From positions 1-64,000 of the IMG/VR virus record IMGVR_UViG_3300028833_000068: 64,000 bases of DNA; one strand, given 5' to 3'. Within the stretch, counting starts at the first letter, position 1, and every line of letters begins with the position of its first letter. The notes below the pieces were generated by a model that searched no databases, was not told the DNA's origin, and worked only from the letters and a program-made list of their open reading frames with translations. The position numbers and the translations under genes are program-made. This DNA is from a virus (lineage: Duplodnaviria; Caudoviricetes). Shown here piece after piece: positions 3,879 to 21,810 of the stretch.

Positions 3879-3960
3879 TGGTAGTGAAGGGGGGACTTGA
3901 ACCCCCATACACCAATTACGGCTTTAACGACTGTATATAAGACAGGACCGATACATCACT
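3879..3960 (-). tRNA. non-canonical tRNA-Ile(TAT)-like, D arm displaced, CCA encoded
   Basis: AGTGATG/CTTCACT-A-CCA, CTGT CT-TAT-AT ACAG, GGGGG TTCAAGT CCCCC; no normal D hairpin. Confidence 0.75.
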
Positions 3961-4168
3961 AGTTTAAAATATTGTTATTCCAATATGGATAATTCTTCTT
4001 TTCAGATTCTGGTGTATCAATAAGTTCATACCTTGCTCCGCAATAAGGACAATGTGCGTTTGTAACCATTGCATCATCGTCTTCTGAAAGTTCTTCCCCA
4101 TTAATTTCGCTTAACATGAAATTTGATTCAAGAATCAAATCATGTTTACATCGCATACATTTTTCCAT
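3959..4168 (-). CDS. small zinc-ribbon protein
   Basis: CxxC...CPYCG. Confidence 0.75.
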   Translation of the reverse strand: MEKCMRCKHDLILESNFMLSEINGEELSEDDDAMVTNAHCPYCGARYELIDTPESEKKNYPYWNNNILN

Positions 4169-4189
4169 ATTGTTAAGTTTTAATTTTAA

Positions 4190-4211
4190 GGGGAACTACG
4201 AAGAGTTCCCC
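4190..4211 (-). terminator. hairpin / putative terminator
   Basis: GGGGAACT-N6-AGTTCCCC after the membrane-protein gene. Confidence 0.55.
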
Positions 4212-4220
4212 ATTTTATTT

Positions 4221-4550
4221 TTATTCGGTTTTCTTTGGTAGGAATATTGGCAAGTTATCGATGAAATTCTTAATGAAAGGAATATCATAGATACCATTAC
4301 TTGCAAGTCCCACTACTGCACAAAGGCAAATCAATGCTAGCCATACTGGTTCTCCAATACATGTAATCAAGCCAAGGAAATAACCTCCTACGGTTAGTGC
4401 AGAACCTGTAATCCATGCGACAAGCTGTGGCCAAAATCCTTCTGTAATGTTAAATTTTCCGTTAATTGCTCCTGCAATCGTAACAGTCAATGAAGCAAGA
4501 ATTGGTGCAAAATACCAAAATGCCTCAGTAAATAATGCTGTTGTAATCAT
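4221..4550 (-). CDS. small multi-pass membrane protein, holin-like
   Basis: About 3 hydrophobic segments, GLASNGIYD motif, basic C-terminus. Confidence 0.6.
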   Translation of the reverse strand: MITTALFTEAFWYFAPILASLTVTIAGAINGKFNITEGFWPQLVAWITGSALTVGGYFLGLITCIGEPVWLALICLCAVVGLASNGIYDIPFIKNFIDNLPIFLPKKTE

Positions 4551-6372: not shown

Positions 6373-6388
6373 AAATTCTATAAAAAAC

Positions 6389-6491
6389 GGATGCTCTTTT
6401 TGTTTGCTAAACCACTAAGCGACTTTGCCAAACGGCAAGGGTTGGAATCGAACCAACGTAGAAACAGAAGTTTCCATTGCTGTAAGCATCC
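6389..6491 (-). ncRNA. ACAGCA-stem element 4: YrlA-like T-acceptor-D module
   Basis: GGATGCTT-ACAGCAA...GAGCATCC; GTTGG TTCGATT CCAAC, CCTTGCC-GTTT-GGCAAAG, GCTTAGTGGTTTAGC. Confidence 0.85.
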
Positions 6492-7305: not shown

Positions 7306-7424
7306 GGAAACATCTATCCACTTAGCTATCACGCCAATCTTGGTAGCGTGAGTTGGACTTGAACCAACGACCTTAAAATCCCGAATTTTATACTATATCA
7401 TTTTTTAACTTGCTGTGTGTTTCC
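7306..7424 (-). ncRNA. ACAGCA-stem element 5: circularly permuted tRNA-Pro(CGG)-like
   Basis: GGAAACAC-ACAGCAA...ATGTTTCC; TAAAA TT-CGG-GA TTTTA, AGGTC, T arm, TCACGCT-A-CCA, linker, GGCGTGA, D arm. Confidence 0.85.
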
Positions 7425-8551: not shown

Positions 8552-8635
8552 GGTGATATGTTGGATTCGAACCAACGTGAGCTTTCGCTACCAGGACCAC
8601 AATCTGGCGTCATCGGCCTCTAGACGAATATCACC
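8552..8635 (-). tRNA. tRNA-His(GTG) with G-1 and long variable arm
   Basis: G-GTGATAT/ATATCAC-C73, CCAGA TT-GTG-GT CCTGG, AGC-GAAA-GCT variable hairpin. Confidence 0.9.
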
Positions 8636-8929: not shown

Positions 8930-9045
8930 GGAATCATTAAAACTAAGGTGGTGCAGGATTCGAACCTACGTTCTCTTGGTAAAATCCAAGGCTTTAGTCC
9001 ACTAAGCTAACCGTCTGAAGTTTATATCAATTGCTGTTAGATTCC
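8930..9045 (-). ncRNA. ACAGCA-stem element 6: whole tRNA body (UUU-like loop) inside the scaffold
   Basis: GGAATCTA-ACAGCAA...ATGATTCC; GCTT AGTGGACTA AAGC, CTTGG ATTTTA CCAAG, GTAGG TTCGAAT CCTGC. Confidence 0.8.
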
Positions 9046-9051
9046 TTTTTG

Positions 9052-9134
9052 TCAGGTGGGTAGGATTCAAACCTACGAACTTCTGCTATATCAACACGGC
9101 TATATTTGCAGAACAATGATGCCGTTTCCACCTG
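9052..9134 (-). ncRNA. non-canonical tRNA-like RNA
   Basis: CAGGTGG/CCACCTG-A, GTAGG TTTGAAT CCTAC; TTCTGC/GCAGAA stem; ACGGC/GCCGT possible pseudoknot. Confidence 0.7.
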
Positions 9135-9325: not shown

Positions 9326-9419
9326 TGGGAAGGGAGGGATTCGAACCCCCCTACTGCGAGACCAATACGCCCATTTGTTAATGCAGGACTGATTTACAGT
9401 CAGTTGACGTTACCTTCCC
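9326..9419 (-). tRNA. non-canonical tRNA-Tyr(GTA), D arm displaced
   Basis: GGGAAGG/CCTTCCC-A, ACTGA CT-GTA-AA TCAGT, GGGGG TTCGAAT CCCTC; only 8 nt between acceptor and anticodon arm. Confidence 0.8.
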
Positions 9420-10992: not shown

Positions 10993-11083
10993 TATTGGGT
11001 AGGGGATTCGAACCCCTGAAGAGTCTCGTAAAACTCTTACAAGATTGAAAGTCTTGCTACTTAAACCACTCGTACAACCCAAC
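10993..11083 (-). tRNA. tRNA with Glu(TTC) anticodon on a type-II (long variable arm) body
   Basis: GTTGGGT/ACCCAAT-A, CAAGA CT-TTC-AA TCTTG, AAGAGTTT-TACG-AGACTCTT variable stem. Confidence 0.85.
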
Positions 11084-20508: not shown

Positions 20509-21810
20509 CTATTTCGCAATTACTAGCGTATGGTCTTTCTTACCCTTGGTTAGCAACAGATACTTACCTTGAATCAGATAAGGTGTTGTAACAGTTTCCT
20601 TCTCACTTGTAGGCTTAATCTTATTGATGGAGAAACCATTGCTCTTAATCAACTTACGAGCCTCAGACTTTGAAGACACCTTATCGTGCATTGCAGCAAG
20701 GTCAACCACAGACACACCGCTAACAAAGGAATCCTTTGATACCTCAACCTTTGCAACACCATCCATAGCTGCAAGAAGAGCACTCTCATCGATTGTTGCC
20801 AACTGCTCGGTAGTTCCTTTACCAAAGAGAATTTCAGTAGCTTCAATTGCCTTGTTGTACTCTTCCTCAGAGTGTACAAGACAAGTCATATACTTTGCCA
20901 ACTCCTTCTGCAAATAACGTGCTGATGGGTTCTCACGATGCTTCTCAATCATTGCGTTAATCTCATCAAGTGGAATGAGAGTAAATTTCTTAATGAATGC
21001 CTCAGAATCTTCGTCAGATTGGTTCAACCAAAATTGGAAAAATTCATAAGGACTTGTTTTTTCAGCACTAAGCCAAATGTTTTTGCCATTTGAACTCTTA
21101 CCAAATTTAGTGCCATCTGCACGAGTAACCAATGGCCAAGTCAACGCACAAGCATCAGTCTTTCCAAGAGCTTTACGAATAAATTCCAAACCAATAGTAC
21201 AGTTACCATACTGATCTTGTCCGCCAATTTCACATCTGCACCCATATTCCTTATACAAATGCAAGAAATCATAACCTTGGGCTGTCATATAAAGGAATTC
21301 ACAAAGTGATATTCCTTCACCCTCACGATTAAGACGTTTCTTTACTGACTCCTTCGCCATCATATAATTGACAGTAGTAAGTTTAGCGACATCCTTCATG
21401 TAGTCAGAAAGATTCATCTTACCCATCCACTCATCATTATTCAACATAATGGCTTTATTCTCAGCATTGCTGTTGAAATCAATTAATTTGCTTACTTGTG
21501 CCTTAATACACTCTGAATTGTGAAGAACTTGTTCATCAGTAATCAATGGACGAGAAGTGTCACGGAATGACGGGTCACCAATTTTAGCAGTAAAACCGCC
21601 TACCAATACAATTGGACGATGACCGTATTTCTGCAATAACTTAGCAGTAGTAAACGCCAATAAGTGTCCAACATGAAGTGAATCTCCTGTAGGATCTGTA
21701 CCAACATAGAATGTAGTTGGCTTACTAAAAACCTCATACAAATCACCACTGACACTAGACATCAGTCCTCTTTCCTTTAGTTCTTCAATTAATTTCTTAG
21801 AATCAATCAT
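20509..21810 (-). CDS. tyrS: tyrosyl-tRNA synthetase
   Basis: YVGTDPTGDSLHVGH (HIGH), QGYDF, GGQDQYGN, KFGKS, C-terminal S4-like domain. Confidence 0.97.
   Translation of the reverse strand: MIDSKKLIEELKERGLMSSVSGDLYEVFSKPTTFYVGTDPTGDSLHVGHLLAFTTAKLLQKYGHRPIVLVGGFTAKIGDPSFRDTSRPLITDEQVLHNSECIKAQVSKLIDFNSNAENKAIMLNNDEWMGKMNLSDYMKDVAKLTTVNYMMAKESVKKRLNREGEGISLCEFLYMTAQGYDFLHLYKEYGCRCEIGGQDQYGNCTIGLEFIRKALGKTDACALTWPLVTRADGTKFGKSSNGKNIWLSAEKTSPYEFFQFWLNQSDEDSEAFIKKFTLIPLDEINAMIEKHRENPSARYLQKELAKYMTCLVHSEEEYNKAIEATEILFGKGTTEQLATIDESALLAAMDGVAKVEVSKDSFVSGVSVVDLAAMHDKVSSKSEARKLIKSNGFSINKIKPTSEKETVTTPYLIQGKYLLLTKGKKDHTLVIAK

Follow-up and report, generated by a model that had tools for sequence, protein, structure and literature searches.

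A jumbo-phage tRNA-Tyr(GUA) gene with a conserved, predicted pseudoknot fold in place of the cloverleaf

A tRNA-Tyr gene without a D hairpin

The window, which is the whole stretch of 64,000 nucleotides analysed here, comprises the first 64 kb of a 171-kb IMG/VR record (33% G+C) that is about 53% complete according to CheckV. On its minus strand, at 9326-9419, this jumbo-phage carries a 94-nt tRNA-Tyr(GUA) gene. The acceptor, anticodon and T arms of the encoded RNA are normal, while the D hairpin between positions 9 and 26 is absent. The gene matches Rfam model RF00005 with 34.4 bits (gathering score 29, E 1e-4 to 4e-4), in an alignment where 15 D-arm positions are replaced by 5 nt and 34 nt are inserted in the variable region, and it was missed by ARAGORN, which called 14 other tRNAs in the window. 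CCA is not encoded, the base after A73 being C, and a scan for sigma-70 promoters and terminators around the gene gave nothing above chance that bears on it. The parts of the gene are listed below in the 5' to 3' order of the RNA; S1 and S2 denote two helices, L2 and L3 two linkers, and the homologues are those described further on.

9326..9419, minus strand: whole gene, non-cloverleaf tRNA-Tyr(GUA); RF00005 34.4 bits, family model R1 108 bits (E 5e-26)
9413..9419, minus strand: acceptor stem 5' strand, pairs with 9327-9333; 7 of 7 pairs change on both sides, 96% of cells paired in 47 homologues
9411..9412, minus strand: U8-A9 linker; invariant in 47/47 and fixed by no search pattern
9406..9410, minus strand: S1 5' strand ACGUC, in place of the D-stem 3' strand; 100% paired with 9367-9371
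9388..9405, minus strand: position 26 (A, 9405) and anticodon arm, 5-bp stem with loop CUGUAAA; the stem covaries, 4 of 5 pairs on both sides
9395-9397, minus strand: anticodon GUA; 33/33 members, anticodon left free in the search
9387, minus strand: single C between the anticodon stem and S2; read from the sequence
9383..9386, minus strand: S2 5' strand CUGC, class II variable-arm helix; 99.5% pairing with 9354-9357, both partners changed in 3 of 4 pairs
9372..9382, minus strand: L2, 11-nt A-rich linker in the variable-arm loop, with AAAU inside; AAAU invariant in the first 24 homologues
9367..9371, minus strand: S1 3' strand GGCGU, in place of the D-stem 5' strand (10-13), behind the anticodon arm; covariation
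9358..9366, minus strand: L3, D-loop-like AUUGGUCUC with A14-, G18- and G19-like bases; conservation in 47 homologues
9354..9357, minus strand: S2 3' strand GCAG; covariation
9351-9353, minus strand: 3-nt tail UAG after S2; read from the sequence
9334..9350, minus strand: T arm, 5-bp stem with loop UUCGAAU; RF00005 alignment and covariation
9326..9333, minus strand: acceptor 3' strand (9327-9333) and discriminator A73 (9326); A73 in 46/47, fixed by no pattern

The RNA has U33, a 7-nt anticodon loop, a purine at position 37 and the GUUCRANYC T-loop region. A long variable arm with a helix is also present: S2 has 4 bp and closes a loop of 25 nt, part of which is engaged in S1. One base precedes S2 and three follow it, which is the class II layout, and the variable-arm helix of E. 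coli tRNA-Tyr has the same spacing. By these function-related features the RNA is a tRNA, yet not a cloverleaf.

Topology of the RNA

The initial annotation had read the acceptor strand as followed by TA, ACGTC, a single A and a perfect Tyr anticodon arm, and this order of parts is what the gene contains. S1 (ACGUC/GGCGU) encloses the anticodon arm and S2 (CUGC/GCAG) encloses the 3' strand of S1, an arrangement of crossing helices that makes a pseudoknot. As ACGUC is continuous with the anticodon stem on its 5' side, it stands where a cloverleaf has the 3' half of the D stem (22-25). GGCGU is followed by A and then by N-U-G-G, resembling A14 and G18-G19 in any tRNA. The annotation spoke of a relocated D arm, and this needs to be narrowed, because what would have moved is only the 5' half of the D stem with the beginning of the D loop, not the whole arm, and the 3' strand ACGUC is still in its D-stem place. 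Read in this way, the design corresponds to a class II tRNA-Tyr in which the loop of the variable arm is enlarged to carry the missing D-arm strand.

The minimum-energy fold calculated with ViennaRNA (-32 kcal/mol, z -2.3) forms S1 and is not able to represent S2. A fold with nested helices only was rejected, since covariation backs both S1 and S2.

Homologues, covariation and distribution

Two pattern scans of IMG/VR were used to collect homologues. The first, in which parts of the anticodon arm and of the T loop were fixed, gave at least 24 distinct close relatives, here called type A. The second was anchored on the L2-S1-L3 module, with the linker, the S1 3' strand and UGG fixed, and added more members. 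Two of the scans made in this analysis gave exactly 76 stretches, and the homologue counts are lower bounds. Because the patterns fixed some parts, some of the invariance arises by construction, and each claim made here rests on the scan that left the part in question free.

Unambiguous alignment to the covariance model was obtained for at least 47 distinct homologues, which come from crAss001 and from phage contigs of IMG/VR. Standard pairs fill 98.3% of the pair cells in these 47 sequences, against 37-49% when the partners are slid by 1-3 columns. S1 is paired in 100% of them and has two covarying pairs, pair 3 being GC in 30 and AU in 17 sequences and pair 4 occurring as six pair types. S2 is paired in 99.5%, with three of its four pairs covarying, and its columns lay outside model R1, which made the alignment. 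The proposal that GGCGT and a D-loop-like stretch lie inside a CTGC/GCAG arm in a pseudoknotted arrangement is thus borne out by covariation of both helices in 47 homologues, and the covariation check suggested for ACGTC/GGCGT comes out in its favour, with pairing in all 47 and two pairs changed on both sides.

A family covariance model built from 24 homologues, with the window left out, gives the window gene 108 bits (E 5e-26), and its next match in the window has 42.7 bits. U8, A9, the A14-like A, the GG and AAAU are conserved in the first 24 relatives, and none of them was fixed by the first pattern. Within L3, the A and the first G are invariant in the 47 homologues and the second G is kept in 45/47. 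Positions 26 and 44 covary in the family alignment as A.C, G.U or A-U. Mutual information among the unpaired columns gave lineage signal only and no further tertiary pairs.

A search for distant DNA relatives matched only this stretch of 100 nt in Bacteroides phage crAss001, a cultured gut phage, and its kin. The crAss001 copy, at 4137-4236 of MH675552, is unannotated and lies in the gap between tRNA-Phe and tRNA-Lys, in a genome that has no annotated tRNA-Tyr; the crAss001 paper reports 25 tRNA genes for 17 amino acids, found by ARAGORN. When the window and crAss001 sequences are aligned, this pair of sequences has compensatory changes in all five helices.

All type A copies came from phage contigs, crAss-like ones included, with lengths between about 28 and 413 kb, and none was in a cellular genome among the 76 matches listed from the genome collection. 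More distant relatives, here called type B, have a 6-bp S1, a 3-5-bp S2, an 8-bp acceptor stem and a 4-bp T stem. They are found in other phages and in at least three bacterial assemblies, which are a Tateyamaria isolate, a Planctomycetota MAG and a Neisseriaceae MAG. A literature search, whose coverage left out most subscription journals, found no description of this tRNA design.

Standard finders reject the gene and its Rfam score is low, as could be expected of a decayed or disrupted tRNA gene, either a pseudogene or a gene with an insertion, an intron or a permuted order. Such an origin is extremely improbable, since 47 distinct copies keep every helix through compensatory changes. A pseudogene was rejected on this covariation. 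With the moved strand placed after the anticodon arm, no excision gives back the cloverleaf order, and an intron or insertion was rejected for this reason; a circularly permuted gene was rejected because the acceptor ends are already at the gene termini.

Other tRNA-like genes of the array

Two further genes on the minus strand of the window are matched by the family model.

9052-9134, minus strand: anticodon-arm-less tRNA-like paralogue, 83 nt; family model match
3882-3960, minus strand: rewired tRNA-Ile(UAU) for the AUA codon, 79 nt; family model match, Rfam 29.4 bits, missed by ARAGORN

The paralogue at 9052-9134 has a perfect acceptor stem, A73, S1 (ACGGC/GCCGU), S2 (CUGC/GCAG) and the T arm, and 8-9 nt stand where the anticodon arm would be. 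Conserved copies, which covary, are present in six relatives. With a strict pattern for this type, matches were confined to IMG/VR contigs that also encode a tyrosyl-tRNA synthetase (TyrRS), all of one clade. In the few sequences of these anticodon-less paralogues, GA in the D-loop-like stretch occurs with U56 and GG with C56, which suggests that the pair of the elbow is kept.

The tRNA-Ile(UAU) family has at least 63 distinct copies in IMG/VR, with a covarying 3-bp helix. As in the tRNA-Tyr variant, the 5' half of its D stem is relocated, together with a D-loop-like UAAUUGG, to a place after the anticodon arm. Unlike the variant, it is a class I tRNA without a variable-arm helix, its fold is nested and its anticodon is another one.

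Several additional observations concern the tRNA genes of the window and of other contigs. The genes for tRNA-Glu(UUC) (10993-11083), tRNA-His (8552-8634) and tRNA-Cys (1284-1366), all on the minus strand, are 83-91 nt long. Rfam alignments place an extra hairpin in the variable region, as an insert of 20 nt in tRNA-Glu and of 11 nt in tRNA-His, which is unusual for class I. At 8945-9016 on the minus strand there is a tRNA-like gene whose anticodon loop has 6 nt (ARAGORN 'tt'), and in relatives it is conserved beside tRNA-Pro. A weak tRNA match of 29.5 bits lies at 7344-7414 (minus), and a sub-threshold YrlA-like match of 31.7 bits at 6381-6480 (minus). Genes for tRNA-Tyr with a normal D arm and a variable region of about 35-45 nt occur in contigs of phages and in MAG contigs assigned to Bacteroides and Pirellulaceae (L030:7379-7486, L061:13515-13621, L091:3370-3476 and L118:4662-4765).

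Tyrosine identity and tRNA-Tyr content of the genomes

GUA in a 7-nt loop is present in 33 of the 33 members collected by an anticodon-free scan, although their anticodon stems vary freely, and all but one of these members keep U33. The discriminator A73 is found in 46/47 homologues. Pair 1-72 is G1-C72 in the window copy, C1-G72 in 10/47 homologues and U1-A72 in 1/47. Bacterial TyrRS enzymes favour G1-C72 as an identity pair, and C1-G72 is reportedly disfavoured, so the occurrence of C1-G72 in 10 of the 47 members means that charging rules may differ between lineages. Among the Tyr identity elements that the initial annotation considered intact, GUA and A73 are therefore conserved throughout the family, and G1-C72 is not.

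Neither the window nor the 171-kb record (53% complete by CheckV) gave another tRNA with a GUA anticodon, in agreement with the earlier remark that the window has no canonical tRNA-Tyr. A pattern for any GUA tRNA detected no other tRNA-Tyr in four complete genomes that carry the variant, crAss001 included, while a 94% complete genome has the variant and another tRNA-Tyr; a gene may still be present where a pattern gives no match. The variant genes are located in tRNA arrays, and in most genomes with an otherwise near-complete tRNA set the variant is the only tRNA-Tyr.

The gene product is probably a functional elongator tRNA-Tyr(GUA) whose core is rewired and which any bacterial-type TyrRS would charge. 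The RNA would be cut from the minus-strand tRNA array and receive CCA. The D-like helix S1 would stack on the anticodon stem, and U8 together with the A14-, G18- and G19-like bases would restore the core and, together with the T loop, the elbow, leading to the usual L shape; the GA/U56 and GG/C56 combinations of the anticodon-less paralogues lend support to this elbow. Charging may proceed through the anticodon, A73 and the variable-arm helix, by the host enzyme in crAss001-like phages and by the enzyme of the host or of the phage itself in the window phage. The charged tRNA is expected to read UAU and UAC.

It has also to be considered that the RNA is a tRNA mimic acting outside translation, either as a decoy or sponge for nucleases that target tRNA-Tyr or as a ligand of TyrRS or of another tRNA-binding protein. 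The same array does encode several tRNA-like RNAs that are unable to decode, including the anticodon-arm-less gene at 9052-9134 and the weak YrlA-like match; mimics of tRNA are clearly among the products of this phage. A decoy needs no anticodon, yet GUA, U33 (with its one exception) and the 7-nt loop are kept in 33/33 members, and the variant is the only tRNA-Tyr in most genomes with an otherwise near-complete tRNA set. The retention of GUA in the anticodon-free scan and the position as sole tRNA-Tyr in most genomes fit a decoding tRNA better than a decoy, and a mimic is accordingly improbable.

The phage TyrRS and the tRNA-Tyr slot in relatives

The phage encodes its own TyrRS, as had been annotated, at a distance of 11 kb from the tRNA variant.

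20509..21810, minus strand: tyrosyl-tRNA synthetase, bacterial type, full-length; Pfam PF00579 5.7e-75, SYY C-terminal domain PF22421

The C-terminal domain is a tRNA-binding one. The protein aligns end to end with solved bacterial TyrRS structures (E 1e-121 to 1e-90), and a protein search places it in a large metagenomic family with contigs of up to 425 kb. Relatives of the enzyme with 52-85% identity are encoded by 15 IMG/VR contigs from this jumbo-phage group, and the variant is also present in several of these contigs. On the contig of L051, a 387-kb relative, the TyrRS match (G002:C1:244191-245470) is split between two adjacent frames that cover residues 6-243 and 241-428; the gene may be split, or else a frameshift or a sequencing error could be the reason.

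When ten other records carrying a variant, of type A or type B, were searched for TyrRS, it was present in two jumbo-phage relatives. It was not found in crAss001 (100% complete), in two other complete type A genomes and one that is 94% complete, or in a complete type B genome. Conversely, among seven TyrRS-encoding genomes at least 94% complete by CheckV, two have the variant and five give no match to it; two of these five have a cloverleaf-like tRNA-Tyr at the locus, and the rest have other GUA tRNAs or no pattern match. The expected co-occurrence of the variant with a phage tyrS does not hold, given four type A genomes of at least 94% completeness without TyrRS and no match to the variant in five of seven TyrRS-encoding genomes of that completeness, and an obligate link between the two was rejected.

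In the ten TyrRS contigs that were examined, the genes around the tRNA-Tyr slot follow one another as they do in the window (Gln, Tyr, Pro, the tRNA-like gene with a 6-nt loop, His). The slot is filled either by the variant or by a cloverleaf-like tRNA-Tyr of 87-90 nt that ARAGORN detects. The latter combines C8 with a D stem of 5 bp and an odd variable region, and its acceptor and T arms are near-identical to those of the variant. Its copies in TyrRS-encoding relatives are the following.

L171:1467-1556: cloverleaf-like tRNA-Tyr; best Rfam match is the tRNA-Sec model, 30.7 bits, below threshold
L170:1488-1574: cloverleaf-like tRNA-Tyr
L179:1488-1574: cloverleaf-like tRNA-Tyr
L181:1467-1553: cloverleaf-like tRNA-Tyr
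L172:1575-1664: cloverleaf-like tRNA-Tyr

The shared slot and the near-identical acceptor and T arms indicate that the variant and this hairpin form are homologous and apparently interchangeable, which would be expected of two forms with one function. One genome of 412 kb has the cloverleaf-like form, the variant and an ordinary tRNA-Tyr in tandem. In most TyrRS-encoding phages the tRNA-Tyr at this locus has C1-G72, and the window and L051 have G1-C72.

These data bear on the idea of a dedicated pair made up of the variant and the phage TyrRS, in which the rewired tRNA is a poor substrate of the host enzyme and needs the phage synthetase. The full-length bacterial-type TyrRS 11 kb away, with relatives in 15 IMG/VR contigs of which several have the variant, is in line with it, and the C1-G72 pair of most TyrRS-encoding relatives could point to co-adaptation. 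Against a dedicated pair are the absence of TyrRS from the complete and near-complete type A and type B genomes named above, the detection of the variant in only 2/7 TyrRS-encoding genomes of at least 94% completeness and the ordinary bacterial G1-C72 of the window copy, so that we give this explanation little credence. Bacterial TyrRS, as in the complex from T. thermophilus, contacts the tRNA at its acceptor end, at the anticodon and along the extended variable arm, rather than at the D arm. As this binding mode needs no D arm, it would also explain charging of the working tRNA-Tyr by host enzymes. The phage TyrRS may charge the variant and would be a possible enzyme for it, not a necessary one.

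Defence as a possible cause of the rewiring

[quoted passage not shown] The tRNA-Tyr of T5 reportedly resists through a distinctive variable loop (PMC13096335; PMC11555353). Since the published cleavage site lies in the variable arm, escape from PtuAB-type defences, which had been proposed for this gene, is plausible for the variant.

The rewiring may have been selected as an escape from nucleases acting on the variable arm of tRNA-Tyr, such as PtuAB of Septu, retron-Eco7 and Bacteroidota analogues. Such selection concerns why the design exists and is compatible with a working tRNA. The variable arm is exactly the part that has been rebuilt, with a loop grown to 25 nt and locked in a pseudoknot. 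In addition, at one syntenic locus of close relatives several layouts of the D arm and variable region are combined with acceptor and T arms that are nearly the same, a picture resembling rapid change under conflict. However, T5 and T6 escape with an ordinary cloverleaf tRNA-Tyr, through dosage or small loop differences (PMC11555353; PMC13096335), so a drastic change is not required. The S2 stem, the place where Septu cuts, persists in the variant, and the D-arm rewiring is also found in tRNA-Ile(UAU), which has no variable arm, so that the cause may be more general. We therefore hold selection by such nucleases to be possible, though somewhat doubtful.

A broader scenario is that translation in the jumbo-phage clade of the window has its own private branch for tyrosine, which conflict over tRNA-Tyr has shaped and which is made up of a variant resistant to PtuAB-type nucleases, a phage TyrRS that charges it and the 9052-9134 paralogue as a nuclease decoy or synthetase ligand; more generally, the cloverleaf would not be the sole natural route to the L shape, the D arm being wired in a second way in tRNA-Tyr and tRNA-Ile(UAU). 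Taken as a whole, this combination is unlikely.

Comparison with known systems

To our knowledge, the cloverleaf is treated as universal for cytoplasmic and phage tRNAs, and the known exceptions lose arms or shift helix lengths, none of them rewiring the core. The variant has all the standard tRNA parts, joined in another order as a predicted pseudoknot that is conserved across dozens of phage lineages. If it is charged and decodes, then RNase P, the CCA-adding enzyme, TyrRS, EF-Tu and the ribosome accept a substrate that is not a cloverleaf, and it would offer a naturally distinct scaffold for engineered tRNAs. Under the same condition, the arms race over tRNA-Tyr would become directly testable in a cultured phage-host pair. 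Inventories of phage tRNAs made with ARAGORN-like finders would then be incomplete, with an unannotated tRNA-Tyr in crAss001.

A first comparison is with the canonical class II tRNA-Tyr(GUA) (RF00005; E. coli tyrT/tyrU, T5, T6), with which the variant shares the 7-bp acceptor stem, A73, U8, the GUA arm, the T arm, and a variable-arm helix that begins one base after the anticodon stem and is followed by a 3-nt tail. It differs in having no D hairpin, in carrying the D-stem 5' strand in the loop of the variable arm and in its pseudoknot.

Circularly permuted and split tRNA genes, known from Cyanidioschyzon merolae and Nanoarchaeum, are repaired by processing to a normal cloverleaf. They resemble the variant in that the order of the parts departs from the cloverleaf (for a review, PMC4033280). 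The acceptor ends of the variant, in contrast, are already terminal and no cut-and-join restores the cloverleaf order, from which it follows that the mature RNA itself must be rewired.

D-armless mitochondrial tRNAs, such as mt tRNA-Ser(AGY) and the minimal tRNAs of nematodes and mites (PMC2797822, PMC7803006), likewise have no hairpin between the acceptor and anticodon stems; in them the arm is lost and the tRNAs are shorter, whereas the variant, at 94 nt, keeps the helix and the GG loop in rewired form. Allo-tRNAs and 8/4 or 9/3 tRNAs (Mukai et al., PMC5389517) are also natural and conserved departures, in their case from the 7/5 layout, and are found in metagenomes and phages. An 8-bp acceptor stem and a 4-bp T stem are also seen in the type B relatives. 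The abstract of that paper deals with 8/4 and 9/3 acceptor/T-stem splits and mentions no relocated D-arm strand or pseudoknot. The tRNA-like structures of plant RNA viruses (TLS-Val, TLS-His; PMC7749636, PMC8127992) are also tRNA-shaped, contain a pseudoknot and are aminoacylated by host enzymes. Their pseudoknot forms the acceptor arm, at a genome's 3' terminus, while that of the variant would replace the D arm in the product of a free-standing gene of a tRNA array.
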